From Parcubacteria group bacterium Gr01-1014_20 (GTDB taxonomy: Bacteria > Patescibacteriota > Minisyncoccia > UBA6257 > 2-01-FULL-56-20): 64,000 bases of DNA. Under the pieces are notes generated by a model that did not search any database, was not told the origin of the DNA, and saw only the letters and a list, made by a program, of their open reading frames with translations. Positions 6,069 through 64,000 of this stretch are shown here, in pieces. The translations under genes were made by a program, and so were the position numbers. The DNA lies in contig VMFW01000006.1 in assembly GCA_007376265.1 (NCBI GenBank), positions 10,930 to 74,929 of the forward strand, given 5' to 3'. Position 1 is the first letter of the stretch, and the number at the start of each line of letters is the position of its first letter.

Positions 6069-6932
6069 TTATTTGTCAATTTGGGCCGAAAAAAATTTCA
6101 AGCGGCTGTCCTCCGCGACGGTTTTTATGGTGCCATCTCGATCGGTTCTTAAAACTTTGAGGATGTCGGTTTTACCGAGTCGGGCGAGAGTTTCTTCGGT
6201 TGGATGGCCGTAGCGGTTATCCCCTACTTCGATAACGGCAATCTCAGGGTTAACATTTTTTAGGAACTCGTCACTTGAAGAATATTTTGAACCATGATGA
6301 GGAATTTTCAAGATGTCGGCTTTGAGGGCTGGGCCAAATTTTTGAACTAAATATTTCTCTAAATTTTGTCCGATATCGCCGGTTAGAAGAATTTTTAGAT
6401 TTCCGGTTTCGATTTTAGTTACAAGCGAGGTGTCGTTCAACTCGCCGCTTTGAATAAAGTTTTGATCGGGCGAGAGAATGTTAATTTTATTTTGCGCATT
6501 TTTAATTTTATCACCGGCAGTCAAAATAATAACCGGAATTTTCTTTTCCTTAATTTTGGCGATTAAATTTTCCCACTCCCTTAGTTCGACGCCACGTCCG
6601 TTAACAATGAAGGCGCCGACTTCGTAGCGCTCCAGGATTTCGTTAAAGCCATTGAAGTGGTCAAGTTGGGGGTGGGTAATGACGGCTAGATCTATGTAGC
6701 GATCGGTTTCGCCTAGGACTTTTTCGAGCTCAACCGTGACTTTTTTGGATGGTCCGGCGTCGGTCAAAATTTGAACACCCGTTGGAAATTGGACAAGAGT
6801 CGAGTCTCCCTGGCCGACGTCTAGAAAATATATTTTTGGCGAACCAGAACGATCTAAAAAAATTATTTGTTGCCAGACTAATAAATCTAGGCCGACCAGA
6901 GCCAAAAAGATTACCCAGCTAAGATTTTTCAT
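6069..6932 (-). CDS. comEC: ComEC C-terminal-like metallo-beta-lactamase domain protein (separate ORF)
   Basis: N-terminal TM helix, then YFLDVGQGDSTLV and HHGSKYSSS, which are MBL motifs typical of the ComEC/Rec2 C-terminus. Overlaps the upstream ORF by 14 bp. Confidence 0.75.
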   Translation of the reverse strand: MKNLSWVIFLALVGLDLLVWQQIIFLDRSGSPKIYFLDVGQGDSTLVQFPTGVQILTDAGPSKKVTVELEKVLGETDRYIDLAVITHPQLDHFNGFNEILERYEVGAFIVNGRGVELREWENLIAKIKEKKIPVIILTAGDKIKNAQNKINILSPDQNFIQSGELNDTSLVTKIETGNLKILLTGDIGQNLEKYLVQKFGPALKADILKIPHHGSKYSSSDEFLKNVNPEIAVIEVGDNRYGHPTEETLARLGKTDILKVLRTDRDGTIKTVAEDSRLKFFSAQIDK

Positions 6933-8370
6933 GATTTTTTAAAACAAGCGCTAGTAAGAACCCGTAGTAAATTATAAAGACAATGCTGTGATTTAGAAAC
7001 TGACTACCAGGAAGCGGTAGGTAAATCAACGAAAAAATTTTGATGACCGCAAGCTGATAAAAAGCAAGAAGGCTGAGTAATTGGGCAACGAAAAATCCCA
7101 AGAGGAATGAAATCGAACTTAGGGCTGACAGCAAGAACCCTAAAAACATTGTGAAGGGAATAGTAAGCAAGATGAAGGTGTTCGCGAAAATAGCGCTTAA
7201 AGAAAACTGATTGAAGTTCAAAATGAGGATTGGGATTACGGCGAGCTGAGCGGCGACGGTGGTTACGCCATTTTCTTGCCAGGCCAGGAAACTTTCCTCT
7301 TTCTTGTCTTTTACCCGAAGTAGTTTTTTTAAAACTGGCTCAAGGTAAACAATTCCAAGGAGACTTAGGAACGAGAGCTGAAAACCAATGTCAAAAGCCA
7401 AGACTCCGGGGTTAACTAGAACCATCACGAGGGCGGTTAGGATAATGATATGAAGGGTATCGTGGACCCGACCGATATGTCCGGCTAGCAAGATAAGAGA
7501 GCCCATAATGGCGGCTCGAACTACCGAAGCTTCACCACCGACCATAATGACAAAAAGAAAAATTAGTCCAAGGGTAATGTAGAATCGTTTCTGACGCGAG
7601 ACGAGTTTTTTTAGCGAGCGTTCAATGGCTAGGGCTAAAATGGCGATGTTGTATCCGGAGAGAGCTACAATGTGAGTCACTCCGCTTCTAGCCATATCCG
7701 TTTTCAATTTTTCAGTGAACTCGGATTTTTCGCCAAAGGTGATACCGGCCACCAGCGCGGCTTTGTCTCGACTAAGTTGTTTTTTGAATTGGCCGATGAG
7801 GTGGTTTTTTAGGCCGTAAAGTTGGGTTTTTAACCAATGGCCCTGATTTTTAGCTTGCACCTCAATTTTCGGGAAGAATGAAATGGGAGGCTGGTTTTTA
7901 AATTGGCTTTTTTCGATTTTGCCATCGAGTTTTACGATGTCGCCGTAATCAAAACGAATCAAGGCATCTGTAAGGACGGTAATTCTTCCATGTTCTGGAG
8001 CTTGGAGTTCGACAGTGAGTTTTTGGTAAGTTTCTTTTTCCTCGGGGTTTTTAGTGAGAACTCCGATTACGATTGATTTCTCGCTTATGGGTATATTTTC
8101 AGCGCGGTTGGTAAAATTAAAAAAGAAATAAAAATAGAAAAACCCAAGAATGAGAAACACAACGCTCCCGACAAAAAACATTCCCGCGCTTGGAAGGATA
8201 CGGGGATGTTTGCTGTTTTCTCCGATATTAATTTTAAAAAACCCTCGTAGAGTAAAAAGCCCAATTAGAAAAACTAAAGAGGTTAAATAAAAATTCCACC
8301 CACTTGAGGCCGCAAAAATACCTAGTAAAAAACTTAGCCCCCAATAGGTGACTTTTTGCCGAGTCGCCAT
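6919..8370 (-). CDS. comEC: ComEC/Rec2 N-terminal part (DUF4131 plus competence domain), polytopic membrane protein
   Basis: 483 aa with many TM helices and the competence-domain pattern (…[14 protein letters not shown]…). Directly upstream of, and overlapping, the MBL-domain ORF. Confidence 0.75.
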
Positions 8371-9023
8371 TCCTGGATTTTTTTATGATTGCCGGATAGG
8401 AGGATAGGTGGAACTTTCCAGCCCACGCCTTTTCCGGGTTTAAATTCTGCCGGTTTGGTGTAGGTTTGATACGAACCTTTGACTTCTTCAAGGGACTCAT
8501 ATTTACCCAAAAAACCGGGTAGATAACGGCTAACGGCTTCGATTAAGACCATAGCTGGTAGTTCACCGCCGGACAAGACATAGTCCCCGATTGAAATTTC
8601 CTCATCGGCGATGTGGCTTGACACTCTTTCATCGACACCTTCGTAGCGACCACAAATTAAAATTAGTTGACTATGTTTCGCTAAGCGCTTAGCGGTAAAA
8701 CTATCCAATTTTTTGCCTCGAATTGAAAAGAGGATGGTTCTCGAGTTGAGGCTTTTTTTGATTTTTTTTATTGCTTTGTAGATGGGCTCAACTTTTAAAA
8801 CCATTCCCGGGCCGCCGCCAAAGGGAGAGTCGTCGACTTTTTTGTGTCGGTCGGAACTGTACTTGCGAAGGTCGTGGGTTTTTACTTTTATCAACCGAGT
8901 TTTAAGAGCGCGAGCAAGCATGGATTCGTTGAGGTAAGAATCCAGGATTTTGGGGAAGATAGTGAGGATATCAAAGCTAACCCTATGTCTCTTCAAAGTT
9001 GCTTTCTTTTTTTTCAGTTCCAT
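8334..9023 (-). CDS. trmD: tRNA (guanine37-N1)-methyltransferase
   Basis: [18 protein letters not shown]…[11 protein letters not shown]…[23 protein letters not shown] are TrmD SPOUT motifs. The ORF extends to 9107, but the conserved N-terminus begins at the internal ATG at 9023 (MELKKKK). Confidence 0.85.
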
Positions 9024-10806
9024 TTTGGTGTCTATGGTGTTCAAGGAGGTTTTTTTCAATCGGAGTTTCCTCCTTTTTCTCGTCTGCGGCTCCCATGAGG
9101 GACTCACTGATCGAGCTTCTCAAATCGTCAAGATCAATTTCTATTTTGGGTGGGCGAGGCAATTCTCTGGGTTTTGGGGGGAGGATTGGTGCGGGTAGTA
9201 GATGTTCCCTCTTTTGAAAGGCCTGTGGAGTTGTAGCTACTTCTTTTGGTTTGAGAACATTGATTCGGGGCTCCTCGGAGGCGGGTCGGTTTTCTGGTTT
9301 GGGAAGTGGTTTAACTTCCGGTTTTGTTTCTACTCGGGTTTGGGGGGTGGTGGGTTTGGGCCAGGATGGAACGGGCCAGTTCGGGCCCACTGGTTTTTGA
9401 GTTTTCTCTTGATATTTAGGCTCCAATCCCTTAGTCGGTTTTGGCTTTAGAATTTCTGAGAGAGATTGTTCGTCGCGCCGGCTAATTTTTTCGTCAACGG
9501 TTTGCATGTCGGCATTCCATTCGGCGCTGATTCTTTCCTCAACTATTTTCCGAGGAGTGCCATATTTTTTTTGCGAATTTTCTATAATAACATCTCGGTA
9601 GGAAATGAGGGGTTGTCTCGGCGGCGGAATAGTTTCGGCCGAAAAAGGTCGTTGGGCCATGCCATCAATCATTAACTTAAGATAAACATTGTATTTGGCT
9701 AGGTTGACCAGATCGTTTTGAACAAATTCCGGCATAAATTCTTTTTCTAAGAACTCTCCGTCAACGGCGCCAACTCGGAAGGTGATCAAGGTGCCAACGT
9801 TACCAAAGATGGCGTCGCGGACGTGGGTATTTTCGCCACCATCTAACTGGCCTATGTACTGGTGGGCCAGAGTGAGACTCAAGTGATATTTTCTAGCTTC
9901 GGACAATATATTGGCAAATGAGTCCGTAGCGAAGTTTTGAAACTCATCTACGTATAGGAAGAAATCGCGGCGCTTTTCTTCGGGCACGTCTACTCGAGAC
10001 ATAGCAGCTAGTTGGAGGCGGGTGATGATCATGGCTCCCAAAAGAGCGGAGTTGTCCTCACCCATACGGCCCTTCGATAGATTTACGACGAGGATTTTCC
10101 CCTCATCCATTATTTTTCTCATTTTTAACACTGAACTCGATTGACCAAGAATATTTCTAATGAGCGGATTGGAAACGAATTGGCCGACTTTGTTTTGGAT
10201 GGCGGCTAAGGCTTCGGTTTCGAAACGTTGATTGTAGCGGGCAAATTCTTCCGCCCAAAAGGCTTTAATGACAGGATCTTTAAGGCCGGAAACTATTTTT
10301 TTTCGATATTCTGGCTGTGAAAACATACGCATAATTCCAAGCAGGGTAGAGTTGGGGTATTCGAGAAGCGCCAGGAGGGTGTTGTTTAAAATGTATTCCA
10401 TTCTGGCAGACCAGGCGTCGGGCCAGATTTTTTTAAAAACACCCATAATGCCTGAAGCTACCAGGTGGCGAAACTCATTGCCAACTTGTTCGAGCGGATT
10501 GAAAGCGATCGGAAACTCGAGGTCAGCCGGGTTCACGTAAATCACGTCGTTCACCCTTTCTTCGGGGACAAAATCCAGAACCCTTTCAGCAAATTCACCG
10601 TGAGGATCAACAACACCCACTCCCCTCCCCGCGCGAATGTCATCGATGGCCATATTTTCAAGTAAGGTTGATTTCCCGGAGCCGGTTTTTCCAACGACAT
10701 AAATATGGCGGCGGCGATCGTCGAGTTTAATGCCGAAAACCTTTTTGGAGCTCCTGAAATTGGCTTGACCCAATATGGTTAATTCTTCCTGATCTTTTTT
10801 ATTCAT
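8983..10806 (-). CDS. FtsK/HerA/TraD(VirD4)-superfamily P-loop ATPase with a Pro/Lys-rich low-complexity C-terminal tail
   Basis: Walker [12 protein letters not shown] near residue 40, a DPHGE motif, and Walker [12 protein letters not shown]. The C-terminal roughly 170 aa are a Pro-rich, disordered-looking tail. There is an 8-bp overlap with the upstream membrane-protein gene. Confidence 0.7.
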
Positions 10807-52750: not shown

Positions 52751-55732
52751 TTATCGCATTAGGTCTCGAAGCCCGCAATATTTACAGTCTTTTTTATTAC
52801 AGCGAGTGTTCCAGAATTCAAGGTTTCGTATTGAGTAGACTGCCTTTTGGATAATTTCCTTCAATTCATCCACCTCACTTTTTTGGATTTCGAAAAACTC
52901 CCGCTTAAAAGTGCCTCTTGGATTTGGTTCTATAAAATCAATTACTCCAGCGTCCATCTCCCAAGTTTTTTCTGGTTTAAGTTCTAGTAGAAGTTTGTAA
53001 AAAACCAACTGCCTCTTGTAATCGCCAGTTGAGTTTTTAGTCAACCCGAGAATTTGGTTTCTTGACCCAGGTTCTTTGGTTTTGTAATCCACCACGATGA
53101 CATGCTTAGGATTTTCTGTAATTTCAATTTTATCGAGTTTGCCAGTCAATTTAATGTTTTCAAGCATAACGCCCTTAATGGCGAACTCGTTCACGGTGTT
53201 GTAGTTCCAGGAATTTTGATAAAAATTATAATATTTTTCTAGAATTTTCTTTCCATAACTTAAGGTTTCCTCAAAATCGGTCTTTGTTAGCGGTTCACGA
53301 CTTAGGGCGTTCTCAAAGCTGAGCAGAATAGAGGGTGCGTCAACTAGCTTCCCTCCTCTTTTAGCGTCAAAAAAGTTTTTGAGAGCAAAGTGAACCGCCG
53401 TACCAAACATCTGTGATTTATTTTTTGATCGGGGAATTCTAAGTAGGTTGAGATAAAAATATTTCCAAGGGCAAGCAAGGTAGTTATTCAACGCACTCAC
53501 CGATAAACCTCGTTTTTCAAAGATCTGTATAAATAATTCTTGATTATCTGAAGTTACATTTTTCACCTTTGATGTATCGAAGAGAACCGCCCGATTTTCT
53601 AAGAACTTTCTGTCGAAATCACCACCCAAAATCTCTGTTTTCAGTTCTGCTCTAATTTCTCCCAGGAATTGACTGGGAATTTGATCTCGACCCTCTTCAT
53701 TTTTAGTGGAATAGGTTATGAAGACGTGTCTTTTGGCTCTAGTTAGGCACATGTAAAAAAGCCTCCGCTCATCCTCGTTTTTTTCAGTTTCATCTATATT
53801 AACGCTAGTTTTGAAAGGGATTTTGAATTTATCGAAATGACGCTTATTTCCCCAATGACCATCAACGGCTTTGGTGAGAAAAACTGTGGAAAATTCTAGA
53901 CCTTTAGCTCGATGAGCTGTCATTAATCGAACAGCGTTTCGAGTTGTGGCCGATTTTGACTGAAGAGAAAGGCCGTGGGTTTTTAAGATGTCGAGATGTT
54001 CTAAGTACTCTCTAAGAGAATAGGCTCGATGATCGTCGGTCGCTTTTCGAATTTCTCTGAAAAGCGAACTCAACTTGTCAATTTTTTGAAGATACTCCCC
54101 GTGTTGAATGATGTGGCTTAGGAATCCGGATTCGTTTAAAACTGCCTCGAAAAACTTTATAAAATCATCGTTACGACTTTTTTTACTCCACTTTTTAAAA
54201 AGCTGGTAGATCTTGCTCAGTTGAACCGAGTTACTGATTTCTAGATTCCTTAGGATTACTGGATCATCAAGGATTTTGTGCAAAGATCGTTTTTCTCTAA
54301 TCGTGGCAACTGAAAGTTGGTAGATATCAAGCGGGTCGATGTTTAGAAAATCAATGTGCAAGACTTCCAGGAGTTTTTCATCATTACCGAACTCATTGAT
54401 GGCGCTAAATATTAGATTGAGTTTTTTAATATCGGGATCGTCTAGAATATTAGACTCGGATTCAATTACATAAGCTAGGCCGGCTTTGTTTAGAAAATCA
54501 GCAATAAGTTTCGCATCTCTATTTTCTCGATACAGAATGGCGATTTGTTCCGGTTTTATTTCGTTGTCTAGTAAGAGCTTAATTTCTTCGACAATAAACA
54601 TTCCCTCTCCCTCAGGGGTTTCGAAGGCGTAAACTTTTATCTTCTCGCCGACATCTTTAGTGGTGGCTCGGAGAGGAGAAAATATGGTGGTTCGATTTTT
54701 TTCAATTAAATCCTGCGCAGAGTCGAGAATGGTTTGAGTAGAACGGTAACTATCTTCTAAATTAATGAGTTTAACGCTAGGATATTTTTTCTGAAAATAA
54801 AGAAAATTGTCTAGATTAGCACCTTGAAACCGAAAAATCGCCTGTTTTTCGTCGCCAACCACGAAAAGATTGGGATTTGGATAAAAGTCACAAATTAGCT
54901 CTAGGATTCGATTTTGAGCCCCGTTGGTGTCCTGGTGTTCATCGATTAAGAGATATTGAAACTTCTCCTGAACTTCTCTCAAAAATTCCGCTTTTGTTTC
55001 AAAGGCCTTAATGGTCTCGAGGATCATATCCTCAAAATCATAGAACCTTTTGTCTCGTAAAATCTCCTGATACTTTTTGTAGACCCTCCCCAGTTCCGAA
55101 TTTTTTTGACTATCCTTTAGCTGTTTTTGATACTCTCCTTTGATTTTACCGGCGTGAGCGCCGGTTAGATGATACTTGTCTGCTCGCTTTTCTAAGCTGG
55201 CAGCTTCTTCCTTAGCGATTTCGATAAAGGCCTTTGCTGAAATCCCTTCGTTTTTCAGATTTTTAATCGAAGCTAAGATATCTCTAACGTAAAAATATTT
55301 ATCACCGAAAGGCTTGATGTGATCGTAGGGTTCTAGGTCGAGGATTTCTCTAATGATGGAAATTCGACTAACTTCTGTCGTGTTTTTGCCACCAATCAAT
55401 TCTTCGTAATTTTCAGGATATTCTTGAATTAGGGTGTTGCAAAAACTATGAAAGGTGCCGATTGTGACGTAATAACCCCGTGAACCAATGAGATTAACAA
55501 GCCGTCTCCGCATATTGGCCGCCGCTGATTCAGTAAATGTCAGGGCGAGGATGGAGTCAGCTGGAGTGTCGCTTTTTGCAAGGATGTTTGCAATTCGGAG
55601 GGTTAAAATCTGGGTTTTACCCGTCCCTGGACCGGCAATAACCATCACGGGGCCATCAATGGTTTCAACCGCCTCTCTTTGCTTTGGGTTAAGGTTTGCT
55701 AGGGTTTTAGCAAAATTAGCTTCAGTTATCAT
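52751..55732 (-). CDS. UvrD/PcrA-family SF1 helicase fused to a C-terminal Cas4/RecB-like PD-(D/E)xK nuclease with a Cys cluster
   Basis: N-terminal VIAGPGTGKTQILTLRIANIL (Walker A), then helicase motifs through about 650 aa. The C-terminus carries …VIVVDYKTKEP… and …CNKKDCKYCG. 993 aa. Confidence 0.8.
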   Translation of the reverse strand: MITEANFAKTLANLNPKQREAVETIDGPVMVIAGPGTGKTQILTLRIANILAKSDTPADSILALTFTESAAANMRRRLVNLIGSRGYYVTIGTFHSFCNTLIQEYPENYEELIGGKNTTEVSRISIIREILDLEPYDHIKPFGDKYFYVRDILASIKNLKNEGISAKAFIEIAKEEAASLEKRADKYHLTGAHAGKIKGEYQKQLKDSQKNSELGRVYKKYQEILRDKRFYDFEDMILETIKAFETKAEFLREVQEKFQYLLIDEHQDTNGAQNRILELICDFYPNPNLFVVGDEKQAIFRFQGANLDNFLYFQKKYPSVKLINLEDSYRSTQTILDSAQDLIEKNRTTIFSPLRATTKDVGEKIKVYAFETPEGEGMFIVEEIKLLLDNEIKPEQIAILYRENRDAKLIADFLNKAGLAYVIESESNILDDPDIKKLNLIFSAINEFGNDEKLLEVLHIDFLNIDPLDIYQLSVATIREKRSLHKILDDPVILRNLEISNSVQLSKIYQLFKKWSKKSRNDDFIKFFEAVLNESGFLSHIIQHGEYLQKIDKLSSLFREIRKATDDHRAYSLREYLEHLDILKTHGLSLQSKSATTRNAVRLMTAHRAKGLEFSTVFLTKAVDGHWGNKRHFDKFKIPFKTSVNIDETEKNEDERRLFYMCLTRAKRHVFITYSTKNEEGRDQIPSQFLGEIRAELKTEILGGDFDRKFLENRAVLFDTSKVKNVTSDNQELFIQIFEKRGLSVSALNNYLACPWKYFYLNLLRIPRSKNKSQMFGTAVHFALKNFFDAKRGGKLVDAPSILLSFENALSREPLTKTDFEETLSYGKKILEKYYNFYQNSWNYNTVNEFAIKGVMLENIKLTGKLDKIEITENPKHVIVVDYKTKEPGSRNQILGLTKNSTGDYKRQLVFYKLLLELKPEKTWEMDAGVIDFIEPNPRGTFKREFFEIQKSEVDELKEIIQKAVYSIRNLEFWNTRCNKKDCKYCGLRDLMR

Positions 55733-55801
55733 GCTTTAGAATTATAAACTGGTTTGTTCTAGTAAAAAACGCCCTGATTTTAGGGCGTTTTGAAGGTTTC
55801 G

Positions 55802-57433
55802 TTATCGAATTGAAGAAAAGAAAGGCGTAAAGTGCTCATCAAAGACTTTTCGGAAGGATTCACCGATGTTGTCATTGGAGGCCGCGAGGGTGGCAATTTC
55901 CTTGACCAGGTGGATAGTGACGTACTCTTCGAGGGCTCTTACGCCAGCGGTATCGCAGGCGATCCAATCCTTGTGGGAGATATTGAAGATGATGACGCCG
56001 TTTTGAACTCGGGTTCGCCAGTGAAAACCGTGCGCCGTGGAACCCTCTTCGTAGTCAGCCGTGAGACCGAACTGCGACTTGATAATTCGTCGTTCCCGAC
56101 CGGCAGGGTGGGCAACCGAGCTGTGAACTTTACTAACTTGCTCGTGTTTCGGTGGCCCTTTGTGGCGATTTTTTTCCACCTCCGCTTTTTGCAGGAGAAC
56201 TCGTTCTTTACTTTCTTTGAGAGTTGGGGCTCGGAGACGAAATTTTTTCGAGGTAGGATTTGCTTCGGCGGCCCTGATGTGTTCTTCCGAGACAAATCCC
56301 GAGAGTCGTCCAGCGAGACGCATGGCCGGATGCTCCTTGAAAAAGCGATCCATCTTAAAAACTGCTAATTCGATAGCTTCCGAGTAACGGGCTAGACGAT
56401 GCTCGCTTTTTAATTCGGCAAAGTTGGGTCGAACTTCCTCTTCGACGAATTTTCTGATAGTCGCGCAAAAAACATTTTCGTCATCATCGCGAGCGAATCC
56501 CTCGCGATCAGCCCGAATCGTGCAGAAATCCACTCGAATGTAGCCTTGGTAGTGACCGGAGCCGAGGAGCTCTCTTACCTCTCGCCAGAGCATGGGCATT
56601 TTGTGGAGAGGAAACTCCTGCATATCGCGGTGAACGACGATGATTTTTGGAGATGATATGGGCTTGATCAGGACGTAAAAGTCAAAATCGACGGTACCAC
56701 GCTGGGTTTTGATTGTAACCCTCTCGCATCTGGTGCCGTCAAATTCGACGGGTTTTACTGAGACGCGTTTTTCGCTGCCCGTTTCCGACTTGAAGATGAT
56801 TTGCACATCAACTTTTTTCTTCTTGATCTGTTCACCCCAAGCTTCGGAAATGCGATCGGCGATCTCTTCAATACGCGAAAGTTCTCGCATAGAACTTTGA
56901 TCGATCTTAGCGAAAGCGACTAAGGTGGTGGGTTTAAAGGAAATACCGCCCGAGAGCGAGTGGTTAGCGTCTTCGTCGCGAATGCTTAATTCCGGATTCG
57001 CGTTTTCTGCGAGCTCTTCGCGGTTAATCCAGGCGGTAAAATATCTGGTCTTGAGACTGTCTCCCGGGCGAGTCGTAATCGAGAGACGCTTGGCGATAGC
57101 TAGACCAGAGAAACGACCAATCCCCTTTTCGCCACCTTTTTTCTTATCACCCTTCTTGACCGAAACGCCAACGTTTTGCCAGAGAAATCTTATCTCCTCT
57201 TTGCCAGCGCCAGTGCCGTTGTCGTAACAGTGCAAGCTTGATCTGGCTTGGTTAATTACAACATGAATGTTTCGGGCGCCTTGATCGAGCGAGTTTTGAA
57301 TCAACTCCACCACGGCGTTGGTAGCATCCTTATAGGTTTGGGCTAGATAGGAAATGGTGTTTCCGACGTGAACTTGGATTCCAACCTTTTCAACTTTTGG
57401 CTCTGGTTTTGTTAGGACTGCCAAATCAACCAC
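55802..57433 (-). CDS. GHKL-superfamily ATPase (HATPase_c_3/MORC-MutL-Hsp90-like Bergerat fold) with about 340 aa of uncharacterised C-terminal region
   Basis: N-box VVELIQNSLDQGA, G1 box YDNGTGAG, G2 box GEKGIGRFSGLAIAKRL. The rest has no recognisable motifs. Higher local GC. Confidence 0.6.
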   Translation of the reverse strand: MVDLAVLTKPEPKVEKVGIQVHVGNTISYLAQTYKDATNAVVELIQNSLDQGARNIHVVINQARSSLHCYDNGTGAGKEEIRFLWQNVGVSVKKGDKKKGGEKGIGRFSGLAIAKRLSITTRPGDSLKTRYFTAWINREELAENANPELSIRDEDANHSLSGGISFKPTTLVAFAKIDQSSMRELSRIEEIADRISEAWGEQIKKKKVDVQIIFKSETGSEKRVSVKPVEFDGTRCERVTIKTQRGTVDFDFYVLIKPISSPKIIVVHRDMQEFPLHKMPMLWREVRELLGSGHYQGYIRVDFCTIRADREGFARDDDENVFCATIRKFVEEEVRPNFAELKSEHRLARYSEAIELAVFKMDRFFKEHPAMRLAGRLSGFVSEEHIRAAEANPTSKKFRLRAPTLKESKERVLLQKAEVEKNRHKGPPKHEQVSKVHSSVAHPAGRERRIIKSQFGLTADYEEGSTAHGFHWRTRVQNGVIIFNISHKDWIACDTAGVRALEEYVTIHLVKEIATLAASNDNIGESFRKVFDEHFTPFFSSIR

Positions 57434-57968
57434 CTCCCTTTATTTTGTCGAGCATGTGATCTCTCTCGAGAACCTGATAGGTTGCGTCACTTGAGAGAGC
57501 GCGAACGGATGTCAGAAAGTTATCAAAGGTTTCGACACCGATCTTTTTCTTGGCTTTCCGACGAATTTCGACCGGACTCTTTAGTAAGGTTTGCAGATCC
57601 GGAAGCATAACTTGGATAAGTAGTGTGAGACGCTCGATAGCTACGTCGTTGATTTTCTCCGAAGTTTCTTCGAGTCTTCCGTCGCTTCCGCTCTCTCCCA
57701 GTTGTTCTTTTACAAACTTTCGATCAGCTTCTGTTGGGGGTGAAGCGGCTTGCCGGATCTTCGGGGCGGTTAACTCACCGCTGAATATTGCGTGGGGGAT
57801 GAGTTCGAATAGTCTTTTGCGATCCACAGCTCTTCTCGGCTGACTTCTTCCATTCCACCAGTCCCACACGGTGCTCCCTGGAAATTGGAAATGCTTGGCA
57901 AATCGATACGAACCGCTTAGTCCGTGAATGTTGGCAAGGCTTTGGATGAGATAACTAATTAGAGTCAC
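57426..57968 (-). CDS. XRE-type HTH protein (putative regulator)
   Basis: Residues about 20-55, LSGSYRFAKHFQFPGSTVWDWWNGRSQP, fit the XRE helix-turn-helix pattern (LAxxxGVSxSTIxxWExGxxxP). 8-bp overlap with the GHKL gene. Confidence 0.45.
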   Translation of the reverse strand: MTLISYLIQSLANIHGLSGSYRFAKHFQFPGSTVWDWWNGRSQPRRAVDRKRLFELIPHAIFSGELTAPKIRQAASPPTEADRKFVKEQLGESGSDGRLEETSEKINDVAIERLTLLIQVMLPDLQTLLKSPVEIRRKAKKKIGVETFDNFLTSVRALSSDATYQVLERDHMLDKIKGGG

Positions 57969-57986
57969 ATTTCCTCCTTCCCCGAA

Positions 57987-58604
57987 TTAGCGGCTGATTT
58001 TGTGTGAGTTAATAATGTCGCGTGAGTTGCCTGGTTCCCACTTCACTCGGGTGAGCTTTGTAATTTCGCGGTCGATGGCGTTCGGTGAGAGACCGCTTTG
58101 ATATCTTTCGGTGATATAGGCGATAAGACCCACACCTTTCTTCGCTTCTAGGCGCTCATTGATTTTTTGCCTCTTGCTTCCTTCACGAAAGACAACTTTG
58201 GAAGATTTTTGAGGAATCCCCTTCTTTCGCCTTGCAGGCTTAGAAGAGGTTTTCGATTTGTCTTCGAGCTGGCTTGTTGAAAATCCCAAGACGCGAATTC
58301 CGAAAATTCGGCCCGCAGCGACAAGCCAACGGGAAAGTGCCTGAAGTTCATAGCTTAAATCTAGAAAGGCCGAAAATCTGTCTTTTTTCTTGGTGCTGAA
58401 TTCCTTGGGATCCGGAAAGCCATTGGCCTCAAGCATGGCGGTTTTGATTTCGCCGTGATTCCTGGCGGCGGCTAGAACATTGATTAACCAAGGGTGAATT
58501 CGAACGTAGCTCAGGAAAGCAGCGGGTTCGAGCGTGGCGTCAAGATTGGCGCCAACAGCGGTAACGAGCAGGGCGTTGACCTTAGTTCCATCGATTTTTT
58601 GCAT
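57987..58604 (-). CDS. hypothetical protein (205 aa)
   Basis: Co-oriented upstream of the XRE and GHKL genes. A candidate promoter lies about 90 nt upstream. No recognisable family. Confidence 0.4.
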   Translation of the reverse strand: MQKIDGTKVNALLVTAVGANLDATLEPAAFLSYVRIHPWLINVLAAARNHGEIKTAMLEANGFPDPKEFSTKKKDRFSAFLDLSYELQALSRWLVAAGRIFGIRVLGFSTSQLEDKSKTSSKPARRKKGIPQKSSKVVFREGSKRQKINERLEAKKGVGLIAYITERYQSGLSPNAIDREITKLTRVKWEPGNSRDIINSHKISR

Positions 58605-58742
58605 TCCTTTCTCCTTACTAGAGTGATAAGTGAGTGAGTCTGCTTCTGAGTTTCTTCAATTTCGATTGTGAAATGACTGGTTTTCTTATATAGGAAAGTG
58701 GCAATTTTGTCAATTTAGAGTTTTGGTGGCGAGAAATTAAAA

Positions 58743-58766
58743 GGCCCAATAATTACTTATTGGGCC
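58743..58766 (-). terminator. intrinsic terminator after the sigma-factor gene
   Basis: GGCCCAATAA-ttac-TTATTGGGCC, a perfect 10-bp stem. On the minus strand it is followed by TTTTAATTT. Confidence 0.5.
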
Positions 58767-58777
58767 AAGTTTTGTTT

Positions 58778-60079
58778 TTAAGAGCTAAACGCTAGTCTCC
58801 TTACGCGGTACCGATAGCAGGGTAGATTTTGTTTGGTGGCGATTCGGTGGCCACCATTGCCGTTGCTTATGATGATCGGAATACCAAACCGATCGTTGCA
58901 AGCAGTTCGGAGAACGCCTAGGGCTTTGGTGTGGATTTGAGAGGTTCGACTCTCGCTTATCTTCAGAATCCTACCGATTTCACGCAGAACCTTGTCTTCC
59001 CAGTAGTAGAGATAGATGACAGTGTACTCCTGAAGAGTGAGATACTCCTTGATTCCGACGCGAAGAAATTCGTACATGTCCTCTCTCGCACACGCCTCCT
59101 CTGGATTCAAGAAGGCGTGTGACTCGATGTTATCGATCAGTTCATAGGGTTTGTCTTCGCTTGGATCAAAGAGCTGTTCAAATATCGACTTAATATTGCC
59201 AGTGTTTTCGTTTTCGTAAAGTTCCAGAATGGTTTCAGCGGAAAGTCCAGTTTCCTCCGATAGTTCTTCGAGAAACGGTTCCCGACCAAGCTTGTGTTGA
59301 AGCTTCATAAGGGCAAGATTTTTTTGGCGAGAACCCGTCCTTACGCTCCTCGGAACCCAGTCGGAGCTTCGTAGGGAATCTAAGATTGCTCCCCGGATAC
59401 GATAAACCGAAAAGGTCTCGAATTTGATTCCCCGAGCAGGATCAAAACCGTCGATAGCTTCCAAGAGGCCGACTAATCCTTCGGCGTAGAGATCATCCGC
59501 GTCAACGTTTTTTGGAAATTTAAGGGACATTCGACCGGCGACAAGTTTAACTTGACCAAGATAGCGAAGCACATAGGCTTCCCTGACGAGATTTCTTAAT
59601 CTCGATTGCTTGGGAAGTTTCTGGAATCTGGCCCAACCTTTGGTTGGGGGAAGAAATTCCTTAACTTGAGCAGTGAGCGTACCCTCTTCGATCGAGACCA
59701 CTTTCTTACCTGAAATTTCTTCGGCGGTGCGCATGAACCGATAGAGGTTGATGGCAAGCATTAAAGCCTCGGGGCGGGTAACCGGTTCTCTATAATTGCC
59801 GGGAAGGAGCTCAATTAAGCTTCCCCACAAAACGGCCACCCTGGTTTGATCAAAAAGATCAATTGCCTTCGCAGCCCAAACGTGATCCGCAACATATTTC
59901 CAGAATTCGTTTTGAGTGAAAAGTTTGAACTCGGCGATTATCTTCGTGAAGTCGTGGTCGGTGGTTAGGCTCAGATATTCAGGATGCCGGAAAACAAATT
60001 TCCAAAATGATCGCTCCTCCAGGACAGAAATATCCTGGAGGAGTTGGCCAGTGACTACAAGCGCGGACGGCTTGGACAC
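58778..60079 (-). CDS. sigma-70-family RNA polymerase sigma factor (FliA/WhiG/group-3-like regions 2-4) with an N-terminal extension of about 150 aa
   Basis: Region 2: DLYAEGLVGLLEAIDGFDPARGIKFETFSVYRIRGAILDSLR. Region 4: LQEYTVIYLYYWEDKVLREIGRILKISESRTSQIHTKAL. The first roughly 150 aa are uncharacterised. Confidence 0.75.
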   Translation of the reverse strand: MSKPSALVVTGQLLQDISVLEERSFWKFVFRHPEYLSLTTDHDFTKIIAEFKLFTQNEFWKYVADHVWAAKAIDLFDQTRVAVLWGSLIELLPGNYREPVTRPEALMLAINLYRFMRTAEEISGKKVVSIEEGTLTAQVKEFLPPTKGWARFQKLPKQSRLRNLVREAYVLRYLGQVKLVAGRMSLKFPKNVDADDLYAEGLVGLLEAIDGFDPARGIKFETFSVYRIRGAILDSLRSSDWVPRSVRTGSRQKNLALMKLQHKLGREPFLEELSEETGLSAETILELYENENTGNIKSIFEQLFDPSEDKPYELIDNIESHAFLNPEEACAREDMYEFLRVGIKEYLTLQEYTVIYLYYWEDKVLREIGRILKISESRTSQIHTKALGVLRTACNDRFGIPIIISNGNGGHRIATKQNLPCYRYRVRRLAFSS

Positions 60080-60100
60080 GGAACTCCTCCAGGATTTGAG

Positions 60101-61063
60101 TTAGAGGTTTGGCGCGTGGATGACATTTTGGCGAAGACGGATGTACTCGGCAGGCTGAATGCCCAACTGCGAGGCGGCAAAGGGAATTTCCGAGGCGTCC
60201 TTATCAATGAAATTTAGAAGCTCCGCAAGGTTCTTCGGTTCTCGGCCATTGCACTCTCCAATCAAGGCTTTCAGTTTGGCTTTGACCGAAGGACTAACCT
60301 GAAGACCTTTGATCTGGTCAAATATGTCAGGCCCTCCATCGGTTTCTAGACTCGCGGTGGTTCTTTCTGGCACGGGCGGTGTGGCGGCATCTTTTTTCGG
60401 AACACGACGAGAATGAACTCGTGTGGTCTTAAGCCCATTCTTTTTTCGTCCGGCATCATAGACAATGTCATAAGCTTTAGCCCAGTTTTGGATGTCGCCG
60501 CAGGTCACGGTTGTACCGGTGGTCGCGGAAATTTTAATGGCGGTGGCGTTCGCTGATAGTTGGTCGGTAACGAGAAGACGCGTGAGAACCTGTTTCAGGG
60601 ATGATTGTTGTTCGAGAAAGAATTTATTTATCGCTTCTCTCTTGAACGGTACGCGACCTCCGGGCTTTTTGCGAGTGGGCTTTTGAGATCCCACTGTTTC
60701 AGGGAGCTTCTTAACCCGACTTTTCCTGGTTTTCTTGCTCTTTTTCGAGCGAGTCATTTTGGATGTTTCGCTTGCGATGTTTTCAAGTTTCAAGCGATAG
60801 CTTTTCCCTAGATAGACTAGAAAAAGTGCCAGCTCGGCAAGTTTTTTCAATTGCGCGGTGGGTTCGCGAGCTTCCATCCAGATTTGATCAAGAGTGGCAG
60901 GGTCAATTTCATAAAGCCTTATCGTGCCGGAATCCCGCCATTTTCTTACGAGTGGCGAAAGAACTGGGTTGGCCATTAGATAGTTTAGGGCCTCTTCGGC
61001 TGTCAACTCTCGCTTGGCCTGGGTGGTAAATCTGTGGATGAGATCGGTAATGGCTTTCGACAT
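60101..61063 (-). CDS. hypothetical protein with a Lys/Arg-rich central segment (320 aa)
   Basis: …MTRSKKSKKTRKSRVKKLPETVGSQKPTRKKPGGR… is a basic, low-complexity block. No recognisable domain. Confidence 0.4.
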   Translation of the reverse strand: MSKAITDLIHRFTTQAKRELTAEEALNYLMANPVLSPLVRKWRDSGTIRLYEIDPATLDQIWMEAREPTAQLKKLAELALFLVYLGKSYRLKLENIASETSKMTRSKKSKKTRKSRVKKLPETVGSQKPTRKKPGGRVPFKREAINKFFLEQQSSLKQVLTRLLVTDQLSANATAIKISATTGTTVTCGDIQNWAKAYDIVYDAGRKKNGLKTTRVHSRRVPKKDAATPPVPERTTASLETDGGPDIFDQIKGLQVSPSVKAKLKALIGECNGREPKNLAELLNFIDKDASEIPFAASQLGIQPAEYIRLRQNVIHAPNL

Positions 61064-61168
61064 CTTACCCCTCCTTGGTGTGTTTTGATTATTAAATATC
61101 TGACCGCAGTCTAGGTAATTTAACGCTTGTTGTCAATCAACTTATTCCTGGAGGAAGGTGAAGAAAAA

Positions 61169-61197
61169 GCCCTCCGACTTTACGTCGAAGGGCTTTG
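61169..61197 (-). terminator. intrinsic terminator after the 151-aa gene
   Basis: The minus strand reads GCCCTTCGAC-gtaaagt-CGGAGGGC (one mismatch) followed by TTTTTC. Confidence 0.4.
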
Positions 61198-61210
61198 GGG
61201 GGTGTAGGAA

Positions 61211-61666
61211 CTATTGCTGTCGGAGTTGCCAGATTTCGGCACCGGTAAATTCAACGCCGGTTTTGGTTTTGATGGCTTGGGCGATCGCGTTGTCACCGGC
61301 ACCGCTTTTCTTTTGGCTTTCGACAAAAGACAAGAGGGTGCCGAGGCCTTTCCGATGGAGAGTGAGGTCGGCTTTGCGTCGCTTGGAACCTTTTCGAAAC
61401 GTAGATTCAAACGGCGGCTTGATTGATTCAGGAGTTGTGTCCGTTTGGCGACCAGCCGGAGATGCCGACAAATCGGTTTGGCCAATATTCAGCACCTTCA
61501 ATGCGGCGGCGAGCCAGGTATCGACTCCTTTCTGCACCGCCTGTCTCACGTGGGGAACAACTTCGGGGTGATCGTTCAGGAAAGTGATGAACTTAGCATC
61601 ACTCATGGCGGGATTCACGCAACCCAGTAATCCCGAAATTATCTGAGTTGGATTGTTGGAACTCAT
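61211..61666 (-). CDS. hypothetical protein (151 aa)
   Basis: 4-bp overlap with the upstream membrane-protein gene. A terminator lies downstream. Confidence 0.4.
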   Translation of the reverse strand: MSSNNPTQIISGLLGCVNPAMSDAKFITFLNDHPEVVPHVRQAVQKGVDTWLAAALKVLNIGQTDLSASPAGRQTDTTPESIKPPFESTFRKGSKRRKADLTLHRKGLGTLLSFVESQKKSGAGDNAIAQAIKTKTGVEFTGAEIWQLRQQ

Positions 61667-62136
61667 GTAACCTCCTTTTGCTTTTGGGTGTGAAGTGCAC
61701 GATCTTCAATTTCTTTCCGAATTTTCGCATTGAACTTAGCGAGCAGTCTCAACTTTCTTACGCAATAACCAATGTTTAAGAGAGAAAAAAGTCCGACAGG
61801 AACGGAAAAAATCAACCATTCCTCTCTTAAAAGCTCGAGAGTGATAACTAGAAAAATCGCTCCTACGATCACCTGACTGTCGTTTTCGGAGAGATTTTGG
61901 GACACCTCCTTTAGACCCGTCAAGTTTTTTTGCAAGTTCTTTTTAACAAGAATCCACGATATCATGAAGGTGGTGATGCCGACGATGGTCAGGAAATTGG
62001 CTAGATTATCAACCGCAAAGATGGAACAGGCGTAATAGGTGACGGCAAAAATCACTGTTGCTTCAAGCAAACTCCAGATGATGAGTGGTTTTATCGGTTG
62101 AATCAGGGTCGCGTTTATTTCATCGGTGTGGCTCAA
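61663..62136 (-). CDS. hypothetical membrane protein (157 aa, 4 TM)
   Basis: Hydrophobicity pattern only. Confidence 0.4.
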   Translation of the reverse strand: MSHTDEINATLIQPIKPLIIWSLLEATVIFAVTYYACSIFAVDNLANFLTIVGITTFMISWILVKKNLQKNLTGLKEVSQNLSENDSQVIVGAIFLVITLELLREEWLIFSVPVGLFSLLNIGYCVRKLRLLAKFNAKIRKEIEDRALHTQKQKEVT

Positions 62137-62248
62137 GAAACCTCCTTTTTAAACTACTGCCATCCTTTTACTGCACTTTTTGGTTTCTGTCAATAGAAAA
62201 ACCCCGTTTTGTGACGAGGTTTTGAAATATTCATTGTCCTTCCGACGA

Positions 62249-62848
62249 TTACTTTTTGGGTTTGGATTCTGGCCAGCCGAGGGGCAACCCGATTCCGAAA
62301 CTAGCTGAGAAACCGGGTTCGATTTGACCCGATCTCCAGTCCAAAAAAGGTGTGAGTTGCAACCGAACTACGGCGGGAGTTTCCTTTTTTCCGATCGGGT
62401 GTAAGTAGCCGAGGCCAAGACCGAAACGGGCGCGGTTGTTACGATTTTTGCGGAAAGCCGAGCCGCCTTCGAAAGCTAGAAAGTAGGCTCGCTCGCGCAC
62501 CATGGTGAAGCGACTCGTGTGAATATTGAAGAAAACTCTCAAGTTTCCTCCGGCGCCATGAAAGCCGTTTAGCGCCCCCTTAATGCCTACCTGAAAGTTT
62601 CGACTGCCAAATCCAATGGCTCCGGCTGGAAAATTAGAGAGCGGGGTGTATTTGCTTAAAACCAGTTCGTAGGCTACCGGAAAAAAGAGCTCGAATGGTT
62701 TTTCATTCTCATAAGTTGAGTCGAAAACAACTTCGAGGCGATCAGTGTCAGTCGGTGGAGTTAGATTAAGAATCTCTCCTTTTCGTTGTCCATATGCTTT
62801 TTCTGAAACGAGGATGAACAGAAAAATCAAGACGACTCTACGTAGCAT
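62249..62848 (-). CDS. secreted beta-rich protein (signal peptide; possible small beta-barrel, PagL/OMP-like), hypothetical
   Basis: N-terminal VVLIFLFILVSEKAYG signal peptide. The mature part shows alternating hydrophobic patterns and Gly-rich turns. Confidence 0.4.
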   Translation of the reverse strand: MLRRVVLIFLFILVSEKAYGQRKGEILNLTPPTDTDRLEVVFDSTYENEKPFELFFPVAYELVLSKYTPLSNFPAGAIGFGSRNFQVGIKGALNGFHGAGGNLRVFFNIHTSRFTMVRERAYFLAFEGGSAFRKNRNNRARFGLGLGYLHPIGKKETPAVVRLQLTPFLDWRSGQIEPGFSASFGIGLPLGWPESKPKK

Positions 62849-62921
62849 CTAGGGCTCCTTTCGAGGCTGTAAAGTTCTTCTCCGAACATACTACTTCCTA
62901 GTAGTTATGTCAATTTCTGAT

Positions 62922-63629
62922 CTAAAATTTCAGAAATTTTTCCCAGTACTTATAAAGTTCACCGGTGGCGATTAAATCGCCAACATTGTATTTGGCGATT
63001 TCAAGACACTTACCCGCCTTAAACAGTTGTCCGACTTCGTCGCCGGAGACGCCATCGCTTTTAGGACTTTTAATACTGAAGGCGCGACTCCACAGGTGAA
63101 GATTGCCTTTTCGCCTAGAGGCGCCGTAGAAAGTGAGTTGGTCGAGAAGGTCGATGTGCCTAGTTGATCTTTGTTGATAAAGATAGCGACCTTCCATCAG
63201 ATCGCGCGTGGGCCGGATTTTATGAATGGCCGAACGAACAGTCAGAAACGGCACATCGAAAGCTCGGCCGTTAAAACTGATAAACTCGGTGTAATTTTTG
63301 GCTCCTTGCCAAAAACTTTCAAGCATCTCTTTTTCGGTGGTTGGCTTGAGACTAAAATTATTAAATTTTGCTTCCTTGGCTTTGCCACTCGGGTCGCTGA
63401 AATAGACTACACCCTGATCTTTTTCTAAATCTAAAACACCAATCGCGACAATCTCTCCGGTTAATGGCGAAAAACCAAGGCCGTTTTTTAAGTCTTCAAG
63501 AGCAGTTTCATACTCGCTTTCGCCCGAAGATTCTTTTTTGATCCAACGGGTTAGGCTTTCCTTGGTCGTGTCATCCAGAGTGTCAAAGTTCTCGCCAATA
63601 GTTTCGATGTCGAAAACGAGTTTGGGCAT
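62922..63629 (-). CDS. DnaQ-like 3'-5' exonuclease related to the PolB exonuclease domain (YprB / DNA_pol_B_exo2-like)
   Basis: From the ATG at 63629: MPKLVFDIETIG (Exo I), …FNGRAFDVPFL… (Exo II), …YNVGDL… (Exo III-like). The track ORF has a 51-aa spurious N-terminal extension. Confidence 0.6.
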   Translation of the reverse strand: MPKLVFDIETIGENFDTLDDTTKESLTRWIKKESSGESEYETALEDLKNGLGFSPLTGEIVAIGVLDLEKDQGVVYFSDPSGKAKEAKFNNFSLKPTTEKEMLESFWQGAKNYTEFISFNGRAFDVPFLTVRSAIHKIRPTRDLMEGRYLYQQRSTRHIDLLDQLTFYGASRRKGNLHLWSRAFSIKSPKSDGVSGDEVGQLFKAGKCLEIAKYNVGDLIATGELYKYWEKFLKF

Positions 63630-63732
63630 ATTTTTGGTATTATAGCTTATTTGACTTATGTTTTGTTTTAGGGTAGAATGTGTCGGTTCGAATCGATATT
63701 TGCTAATTGAAACTTTAATCAAAGGAGGAGTA

Positions 63733-64000
63733 GTGCGATCCAAGCTGACTGCCATTGGCGTCATCACTCTATTTCTTGCCATCGGAATGACTTCTCAGGT
63801 CTCGGCGCAAGAAGAACTACAACGCCTTTCAATCTCGGGAGCCGTAGGCGTTTACTCGAAGTACATAGTGGAGAATGGCGCCCTTTGGCACAAAGACCCT
63901 GTGTTCCAAGGTAATGTAACGTTGAAATTCAATCGGTGTGGAGGCTACTTGGACGTTTGGGCATCCAAGGATTTCGACAACATCGGAAACTACGGCGAGG
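63733..64000 (+). CDS. secreted hypothetical protein, 5' part (runs off the right edge)
   Basis: GTG start at 63733 with AAAGGAGG 6 nt upstream. Translation VRSKLTAIGVITLFLAIGMTSQVSAQE begins with a signal peptide. Confidence 0.4.
   Translation, partial: MRSKLTAIGVITLFLAIGMTSQVSAQEELQRLSISGAVGVYSKYIVENGALWHKDPVFQGNVTLKFNRCGGYLDVWASKDFDNIGNYGE

Follow-up and report, generated by a model that had tools for sequence, protein, structure and literature searches.

In Streptomyces, triads of the WhiJ/AbaA/anti-sigma-like type arrange a GHKL regulator together with a helix-turn-helix (HTH) repressor. A pair of a GHKL protein and an HTH regulator has been documented for CapK-CapS (PMC13373217). GHKL heads also occur in restriction and defence systems, and prokaryotic MORC and paraMORC proteins, which are found in restriction-modification contexts with superfamily 2 (SF2) helicases and endonucleases, are predicted to manipulate DNA superstructure (PMC2292703). 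In this study, we analyzed a stretch of 64,000 nucleotides (nt; hereafter the window) from Parcubacteria group bacterium Gr01-1014_20, in which a GHKL ATPase of 543 amino acids (aa) is encoded by the last gene of a three-gene operon, directly downstream of the gene for an HTH protein. For brevity, the products of this operon are called A (g205), B (g180), and C (g543, the ATPase).

The operon is part of a 6.3-kb block of seven open reading frames (ORFs; 55802–62136, minus strand), which an earlier annotation made from the letters alone (the original prediction) had described as a GC-rich island, possibly acquired horizontally and acting in defence or regulation. All seven minus-strand ORFs were borne out at their coordinates by the ORF listing, as were the overlaps in sub-blocks (8 bp for g180/g543 and 4 bp for g157/g151). 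Since the genes between 36.7 kb and 64 kb of the window are nearly all on the minus strand, the shared orientation of the block is uninformative. The sigma factor of the block (g433) and the g205 protein are each 100% identical to records from the 124-kb contig of Gr01-1014_20, where the sigma factor is annotated as FliA, so that the window can be assigned to a chromosome of the Candidate Phyla Radiation (CPR)/Patescibacteria. The block is ordinary chromosome of such a bacterium and comprises three transcription units (TU1 to TU3); with good confidence, it represents a conserved, CPR-specific A-B-C operon (TU3) adjoining a lineage-specific regulatory cluster of A paralogues and an extended sigma factor (TU1 and TU2). 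Our best reading of the operon, to which we assign a probability of about 0.45, is that C would form a dimeric clamp, driven by ATP, which the HTH protein would recruit to DNA.

The ATPase C and its operon partners

C (55802..57433, minus strand) revealed a GHKL head (residues c. 1–205), a putative S5-like transducer domain (c. 209–302), a long helix (317–367), a linker rich in lysine and arginine (K/R; c. 373–448), and an alpha/beta C-terminal domain (c. 450–543). The Bergerat-type head, already recognized in the original prediction, matched Pfam HATPase_c_3 (E = 1.1e-13, residues 38–133, 51.8 bits against a cut-off of 25), and the N-box (ExxxN), G1 (DxGxG), and G2 (GxxGxG) boxes by which the GHKL superfamily is recognized were present in order. 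Among 68 members of the C family, E43 (95%), N47 (100%), D71 (100%), G73 (100%), K93 (97%), and G101 (98%) are conserved, and the complete set of catalytic and ATP-binding residues, which further includes D50, G75, and G104, is conserved to 92–100%; judged by these residues, C is probably catalytically active. In the same members, a second motif (F-N-x-x-H-x-D-W) characterizes the C-terminal domain of about 95 aa, with conserved W472, G479, N484 (98%), and H487 (83%). The linker has a length of 54–96 aa across the family and contains 23% K+R compared to 15% for the whole protein.

The closest solved sequences were the N-terminal domains of MutL/MLH1 (E = 2.8e-5), aligned only from the N-box to the G2 region. 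Established family models of MutL, HSP90, restriction enzymes, and histidine kinases failed by wide margins, and C is neither a canonical MutL nor a histidine-kinase fragment. Thus, the MutL model TIGR00585 reached 25.1 bits against a cut-off of 180 and the others 15–19 bits against 391–937, all of them over residues c. 36–84 alone, and neither a Pfam match to MutL_C or DNA_mis_repair (E ≤ 0.1) nor an endonuclease motif was detected in C. The HSP90 model NF010683 gave 15.9 bits against a cut-off of 455, without a match to Pfam HSP90, while HisKA was not found and HATPase_c stayed at 20.9 bits, below its cut-off of 26.4.

Modelling of full-length C from a shallow alignment led to a predicted local distance difference test (pLDDT) score of 66.5, and Foldseek matched this model to the N-terminal plus middle (N+M) domains of Hsp90 and to the N-terminal domain of MutL. 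Residues 201–543, modelled with the 68-sequence alignment (pLDDT 89.5, predicted template modelling score 0.82), displayed a beta-rich domain, a 50-residue helix, the basic and partly disordered linker, and a C-terminal domain of the order beta-beta-beta-alpha-alpha-alpha. Comparison of the latter model with PDB and BFVD resulted in weak matches, the best with an E value of about 2e-3, to the Hsp90 middle domain, MORC3, the GyrB transducer, and RIIA, and a MutL C-terminal domain was not among the listed top 50 PDB matches. The transducer was placed by the weak structural likeness of the first domain after the head to the middle or transducer domains of Hsp90, MORC3, and GyrB. For the C-terminal half of C, no relative was detectable in the PDB and BFVD model search, in agreement with the uncharacterized tail originally described.

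Altogether, C is most aptly regarded as a new family within the GHL branch (MutL/MORC/Hsp90) of the GHKL superfamily. It shares with the N-terminal ATPase of MutL and the MLH/PMS proteins the Bergerat fold with ExxxN, DxGxG, S-x-K, and GxxGxG motifs, a transducer-like second domain, and a C-terminal domain set apart by a long disordered linker. Apart from the low model scores and the missing MutL domains given above, it differs from them in its own C-terminal domain and in its partner, which is a probable XRE-type HTH protein and not MutS. With MORC and paraMORC proteins (PMC2292703), it has in common the combination of a GHKL head (HATPase_c_3) and a putative S5-like module, a match of its middle domain to MORC3 (root-mean-square deviation of 4.8 Å over 118 columns), and, as predicted mode of action, the manipulation of DNA superstructure; in contrast to them, C resides in housekeeping contexts with an HTH partner. 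Restriction-modification genes, SF2 helicases, or endonucleases were not found as operon partners of C in about 10 independent neighbourhoods, where terminators split C from uvrB and from the uvrD-like gene.

Hsp90/HtpG provided the best whole-chain fold matches (N + middle), its three-part layout with a charged linker recurs in C, and the middle domain of C weakly matches that of Hsp90, as would be expected if C were a protein chaperone akin to Hsp90, with B and A serving as its co-factors. We nevertheless regard such a role as most improbable. The TM-scores are low (0.2–0.3), the sequence of C is closer to MutL, the HSP90 model and Pfam indicate no membership at the sequence level, the C-terminal domain is a different one, and the obligate HTH partner as well as the strongly basic linker point to nucleic acid.

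B (57426..57968, minus strand) combines a probable Cro/C1 (XRE)-type HTH with a helical C-terminal domain. Its single sequence gave no Pfam match, whereas a profile of 12 members compared with the PDB revealed HTH structures of the Cro/C1 type, namely 2kpj (E = 2.3e-4), 9iaq (0.004), and HipB (0.03), with XRE-type chains down to an E value of 0.06. In addition, B members showed sub-threshold Pfam matches to HTH_26, HTH_28, HTH_31, and Phage_CI_repr, and the more distant ones carry the textbook signature G-I-x-x-S-T-x-x-x-x-x-N-G. The XRE assignment made originally is therefore reasonable, based on the family profile and not on single-sequence Pfam, and the overlap with the start of C was found as described. 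In each of the 12 distinct loci, the gene preceding C encodes a B homologue of 160–244 aa. The two genes overlap by 4–29 bp in 8 of the 11 loci examined and are separated by 16–25 nt in the other three, so that the sequence suggests translational coupling of B to C. Positions 26–138 of the B profile also matched residues 182–296 of Bacillus-type RNA polymerase alpha subunits (end of the N-terminal domain, linker, and C-terminal domain; E = 3.4e-4), and the conserved residues R113 and G144 of B align with the helix-hairpin-helix motifs of the alpha C-terminal domain. B may thus possess an alpha-like C-terminal domain, or the match may be due to chance.

A (57987..58604, minus strand) is a member of an orphan family, in which an N-terminal domain carrying the motif F-x-x-Y-L-x-x-H-P is followed by a K/R-rich linker and a C-terminal module of about 55 aa, which we infer to be an HTH. 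A hidden Markov model (HMM) built from A members outside the window and run against the 349 ORFs of the window recovered g205 (E = 1.2e-17), g320 (9.9e-5; 60101..61063, minus strand), g151 (2.5e-4; 61211..61666, minus strand), and nothing else, and BLASTP of g151 against g205 gave an E value of about 1e-7. Thus, the three proteins are paralogues. The original prediction, which had listed g205 and g151 as unknowns and noted a K/R-rich stretch in g320, was right about the ORFs and about this stretch and missed that they form one family. In g320, the K/R-rich linker is long and followed by an extra C-terminal module; its orthologue in a relative from Hainich groundwater (locus L020) is 63% identical.

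Homologues of A occupy the same position upstream of B in the nearer relatives L002, L005, L009, L010, L017, and L020. In three distant loci (L023, 166–768; L024, 6984–7436; L025, 5494–6129), the gene upstream of B encodes another basic protein outside the A family, with the motif W/Y-(T/S)-x-E-Q-(E/D)-x-(Y/W)-L-K and a conserved C-terminal V-W-(S/Q)-G motif. It looks Myb/SANT-like and may be a non-homologous replacement of an accessory DNA-binding subunit. A small gene of 74–81 aa, for which no counterpart was found in the window, precedes A in L002, L009, and L010, and in L009 a gene for a sigma-54-activator-type AAA+/HTH_8 protein (7275–8216) lies directly upstream of the module with this small gene. 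In assemblies of the close relative, contig ends fall repeatedly within the A-B-C operon or shortly before it (L001, GCA_964366545.1; L016; L021; L022); the contig of L001 begins inside the g205 homologue, and this is also where several contigs of 1–2.5 kb end. Strain variation in fast-evolving A genes is one possibility for these breaks.

Distribution and genomic contexts of the operon

A word-indexed search for C among 5.8 billion proteins resulted in four full-length relatives, and an HMM scan of 1.84 billion cluster representatives in 151 at E ≤ 1e-30, most of them 500–590 aa long and aligned end to end. Members with a named source, a minority of those sampled, were labelled Patescibacteria, Paceibacterota, Vogelbacteria, Saccharibacteria, or Parcubacteria, with the exception of one metagenome-assembled genome labelled Planctomycetota. 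Product names, where given, were only "ATP-binding" or "hypothetical". A scan of genome contigs with g543 alone found no locus; scans with a 12-sequence alignment yielded two loci in genomes and four in metagenomes. In the literature, full-text keyword searches pairing GHKL with Patescibacteria and MORC with Candidate Phyla Radiation found no paper on the C family (MORC matches judged on title and abstract).

In three genomes, whose C proteins are 33–38% identical to each other, the gene is located between ruvA-femAB and uvrB (one of them on a 1.07-Mb contig), and in one genome it lies beside ruvC-yebC-ruvB. Further positions were in the vicinity of gatB (three genomes), in the greA–aspS interval adjoining the mre and dcw clusters, and between thrS and argS. 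In the window, C is followed by a helicase-nuclease gene (52751–55732, minus strand), which encodes a 993-aa UvrD/PcrA-like superfamily 1 (SF1) helicase fused to a Cas4/PD-(D/E)XK nuclease domain (AddA/AddB-like).

The neighbouring uvrD-like, uvrB, and ruv genes would fit a MutL-like matchmaker of repair and recombination that coordinates the UvrD-like protein, UvrB, and the Ruv proteins on DNA and partly compensates for canonical mismatch repair where CPR lineages lack it. The similarity of the head to MutL/MLH1 N-terminal domains and the MutL-like succession of N-terminal domain, disordered linker, and C-terminal domain are in line with it, and so is the C member in Saccharibacteria, a phylum reported to be without MutS and MutL (PMC8406219). 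However, we consider this role unlikely. The MutL models remained far under their cut-offs, no MutL_C domain, endonuclease motif, or MutS-like partner was detected, and the other contexts are those of tRNA synthetases, the dcw cluster, and gatB. Moreover, intrinsic terminators separate C from the helicase genes: equivalents of the terminator in the window were found 3' of C in L010 and L009. Since terminators follow C in these three lineages, its links to repair genes are positional and not operonic, and an operonic connection to the downstream helicase genes is rejected.

As to the supposed island, the GC content, originally estimated by eye at 50–53%, was computed as 48.0% for the block against 45.0% for the rest of the window. 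Per gene, the mean was 0.482 compared to 0.452 ± 0.031, i.e., about one standard deviation higher (Mann-Whitney p = 0.012), and the GC content of third codon positions was 0.513 compared to 0.475. The codon usage of the block genes (Kullback-Leibler divergence of 0.07–0.15) is inside the normal range of the window. The GC contrast looks sharp mainly because the adjoining helicase gene is unusually AT-rich (39.2% GC). As stated in the original prediction, no integrase is present, neither in the nine ORFs of 55802–63782 nor in the downstream helicase, and no flanking repeats and no adjacent tRNA were found at the block. Searches of phages and plasmids revealed no homologues of the module, and a PHROG search gave no support for a mobile origin.

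The gene order of the whole block recurs in the one related genome covering it (two pieces, from Hainich groundwater samples). Between these sister genomes, C is 92% identical, similar to the products of the flanking helicase, VIT, GDH, and G6PD genes (89–95%), B is 81% identical, and the A-type proteins 63–77%. A comparison of the block proteins with PADLOC-DB v2, a check proposed together with the island, led to fragmentary head-domain matches and to no system: g543 matched only about 75 positions of the TmtA models of 1302–1486 positions (head only), the sigma factor matched the sigma-like tail of MzaA alone, and the other five proteins had no match.

These results bear on an anti-phage defence or toxin-antitoxin-like module, in which an XRE antitoxin or regulator would control a GHKL effector from a mobile island. 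It would be consistent with the known GHKL heads of restriction and defence systems (PMC2292703), with the weak head-only matches of C to PADLOC TmtA and to the BbrUII/HgiDII restriction-enzyme model, and with the order of a small HTH gene and a large ATPase gene, which resembles toxin-antitoxin and abortive-infection pairs; in addition, two B members matched the Xre-MbcA-ParS middle domain (E = 0.016), and the A-type proteins are fast-evolving. We regard it as very unlikely, however, since no PADLOC model matches beyond the head residues, no nuclease or other effector domain was detected, and phage or plasmid homologues, an integrase, and flanking repeats are missing. Codon usage is normal, C diverges like its housekeeping neighbours, and in distant genomes the module takes syntenic positions among housekeeping genes.

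The divergence of C at the pace of its flanks, together with the lack of phage and plasmid homologues and of a PADLOC system, speaks in favour of vertical inheritance rather than of a mobile island for defence. TU3 is thus a vertically inherited operon, so far seen in CPR bacteria only, and horizontal acquisition and a defence role are not supported, given also the GC shift of only about 3 points, the normal codon usage, and the synteny. Two findings had been named in the original prediction as speaking against its island, a uniform composition and a C that resolves as a canonical MutL or a histidine-kinase fragment; the composition is indeed nearly uniform, but C is neither of the two. While the defence part of the predicted role did not hold, a regulatory role is still conceivable and is discussed with the sigma factor below. 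More generally, a GHKL ATPase gene beside an XRE-like gene is not by default a defence island.

A clamp on DNA as the favoured reading

In the proposed mechanism, which is drawn by analogy from other GHL ATPases, the GHKL heads of a C dimer would close on ATP, hydrolysis would be sensed through the S5-like transducer, and dimer contacts would be maintained by the conserved C-terminal domain. That C has a basic linker and an obligate HTH partner, coupled to it in stoichiometry, suggests DNA as its substrate, the linker presumably contacting nucleic acid. B, made in fixed proportion to C via translational coupling, would guide C to particular sites on DNA, among them probably the conserved promoter region of the operon itself (see below); alternatively, C might remodel B on DNA. 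A is a fast-evolving basic accessory protein, probably DNA-binding as well, whose family has expanded in this lineage, with two paralogues recruited into TU1 and TU2 beside the sigma factor of the FliA/WhiG family. Dimerization, clamping of DNA, recruitment by B, and DNA binding by A are the parts of this scheme that we infer.

Several observations weigh against this reading. Of 10 independent contexts, only about 3 have repair genes adjoining C. No relatives are detectable for the C-terminal 240 residues of C, and none in Pfam or PDB for the A family, so that the roles of both are guesses. In one member of the C family (P0003; L002, 10001–11626), the catalytic Glu of the N-box is replaced by Ala (IAALVQNSLD), and this protein may be a variant that binds ATP without hydrolyzing it. 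The cluster of sigma factor and A paralogues was seen in this lineage only and hence says little about the core module. Finally, a kinship of the N-terminal extension of the sigma factor with the N-terminal domain of A, suspected from an F-x-x-(Y/F)-x-x-x-H-P motif that both carry equally far from the start, was not supported (HMM E value of 9.7; hhalign probability of 8.5%, P = 0.004, 22 columns).

Beyond the DNA clamp itself, a wider interpretation is put forward tentatively. B and C, with A proteins as accessories, could be a housekeeping and lineage-defining DNA machine of Patescibacteria, i.e., an ATP-driven GHL clamp loaded by a dedicated XRE-type adaptor, which would organize, silence, or repair the chromosome of these episymbionts with minimal genomes, might stand in for functions lost in some CPR phyla such as MutL-type matchmaking, and would be tied to transcription by A via the extended sigma factor. 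A considerable part of bacterial diversity belongs to the CPR/Patescibacteria, whose genomes are very small and contain many unannotated genes, and the module is conserved among core genes across several of their phylum-level groups (labelled Parcubacteria/Paceibacterota, Vogelbacteria, and Saccharibacteria). With an apparently active GHL ATPase whose C-terminal half has no detectable relatives, the module is a testable candidate for a lineage-specific DNA or chromosome function.

Transcription units, sigma factor, and neighbouring genes

Each of the three transcription units, all on the minus strand, is predicted to start with a promoter of the type TTGACA-17 nt-TAnAnn and to end with an intrinsic terminator. 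For TU3 (g205-g180-g543), reading of the sequence revealed a putative sigma-70-like promoter at 58713–58685, with TTGACA (58713–58708), a 17-nt spacer, and TATAAG (58690–58685), and a putative terminator at 55789–55764 with an 8-bp stem (AACGCCCT/AGGGCGTT) and a following T-run. TU2 (g320-sigma) was delimited by a scan and sequence reading, which placed its likely promoter (TTGACA, 17-nt spacer, TAGACT) at 61136–61108 and its terminator (GGCCCAATAA...TTATTGGGCC, then a T-run) at 58766–58743. TU1 (g157-g151), again based on sequence reading, would extend from a promoter at 62193–62165 (TTGACA, 17-nt spacer, TAAAAG), which is conserved in L020, to a terminator at 61192–61161 (CCCTTCGAC/GTCGGAGGG, then a T-run). 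Compensatory changes in L020 were found in the terminator stems, including that of TU2.

About 55 nt over the TU3 promoter and the early transcript (window 58660–58730, minus strand; L020 c. 9900–9970) are almost identical in both relatives, whereas the intergenic flanks of this stretch and the A protein (68% identity) have diverged in the Hainich relative. The conserved stretch is a candidate operator for the XRE-like B.

TU1 and TU2 encode the two further A paralogues g151 and g320, a membrane protein, and the extended sigma factor. The sigma factor (58778..60079, minus strand) was correctly predicted to be FliA-like, as TIGR02479 was passed with 195.7 bits against a cut-off of 189.6 (residues 170–392). 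Like other sigma factors of the FliA/WhiG type (sigma-28), it possesses regions 2, 3, and 4 (residues c. 162–394; Sigma70_r2, E = 8.5e-16; r4, E = 4.8e-12; r3 weak, E = 2.7e-4). It differs from them by an N-terminal extension of about 160 aa, found in its closest relatives only, and by its position after an A paralogue with hairpin coupling. The novelty of the extension was confirmed insofar as nothing in Pfam or NCBIfam matches the first c. 160 residues, and one other sigma factor bearing it was found (P0169 from the Hainich relative, 85% identity). The other listed matches were proteins of 250–310 aa with 36–46% identity, the few with an organism name belonging to other phyla; as this search was word-indexed and could miss divergent CPR sigma factors, no conclusion on horizontal transfer is drawn. 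Promoters of the sigma-28 type were not enriched in the window (12 observed compared to 7.8 ± 2.5 expected), and the only near-consensus site, located inside g157, had a chance equivalent in 27% of shuffles and lacked conservation in L020.

Around the start of the sigma gene, inverted repeats and sequence revealed a three-segment mRNA element (60014..60095, minus strand). The ribosome-binding site (RBS) GGAGGAG and the GTG start can pair with an anti-RBS segment at 60045–60032, which can instead pair with a third repeat copy downstream (60023–60014). The predicted fold has a free energy of −38.3 kcal/mol (z = −3.9), a stability reached by none of 200 shuffles, and positions 60014–60045 are 100% conserved in L020. 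The stop codon of g320 lies 6 nt before the hairpin, which is probably a device for translational coupling of g320 and the sigma gene. An RBS-sequestering hairpin of this kind is a classical coupling arrangement and suggests that g320 and the sigma factor are co-produced and function jointly. The A paralogues beside the sigma factor and this coupling further suggest that the A family links the module to transcription.

Such an arrangement raises the alternative of a transcriptional switch, in which B would be an XRE-type autorepressor of the operon, possibly acting on other genes as well, and C would regulate in a nucleotide-dependent way by modifying or sequestering B or proteins of the A family, here perhaps also the neighbouring sigma factor. 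The probable XRE-type HTH of B, the strong conservation of the c. 55 nt around the TU3 promoter, the neighbourhood of the operon to the sigma factor and to A paralogues translationally coupled to it, and the documented GHKL and HTH regulator pairs (PMC13373217) would agree with a switch. With CapK-CapS and the WhiJ/AbaA triads, the operon shares its small size and the pairing of a GHKL-fold protein with an HTH protein, here also beside a sigma factor. In those systems, however, the GHKL fold belongs to small kinases resembling SpoIIAB, which have STAS or DUF397 partners, while C, with its 540 aa, is a GHL ATPase (MutL/MORC/Hsp90 type) with a putative transducer domain and not a small kinase of the SpoIIAB/RsbW type. 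Pfam detected no STAS domain in the block proteins, no anti-sigma-antagonist partner was detected, and no other locus bearing the module contains the sigma factor. Overall, we consider the switch somewhat unlikely.

The remaining gene of the block, g157 (61663..62136, minus strand; based on its ORF and hydrophobic stretches), encodes a small membrane protein with about four hydrophobic segments, in accordance with the four-transmembrane protein of the original prediction. Its start codon is uncertain (TTG here, CTG in L020), and its only homologue was found in L020.

Elsewhere in the window, an ORF of 845 aa (38201–40738, minus strand), the long gene with the highest GC content (54.3%), resembles the major vault protein (MVP). 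It matched Pfam MVP_shoulder (E = 4.7e-27) and the Vault repeat and is collinear with rat MVP (residues 483–776 compared to 477–777 of 861, E = 2.9e-13), so that it appears to be a near-full-length MVP homologue in a Parcubacteria genome, possibly of horizontal origin. The adjoining gene (40949–42973, minus strand) encodes a 674-aa protein with dockerin and He_PIG/Big_9 Ig-like domains. Further genes of the window encode a TrwB/VirD4-like coupling ATPase (8983–10806, minus strand) and ComEC (6919–8370, minus strand).

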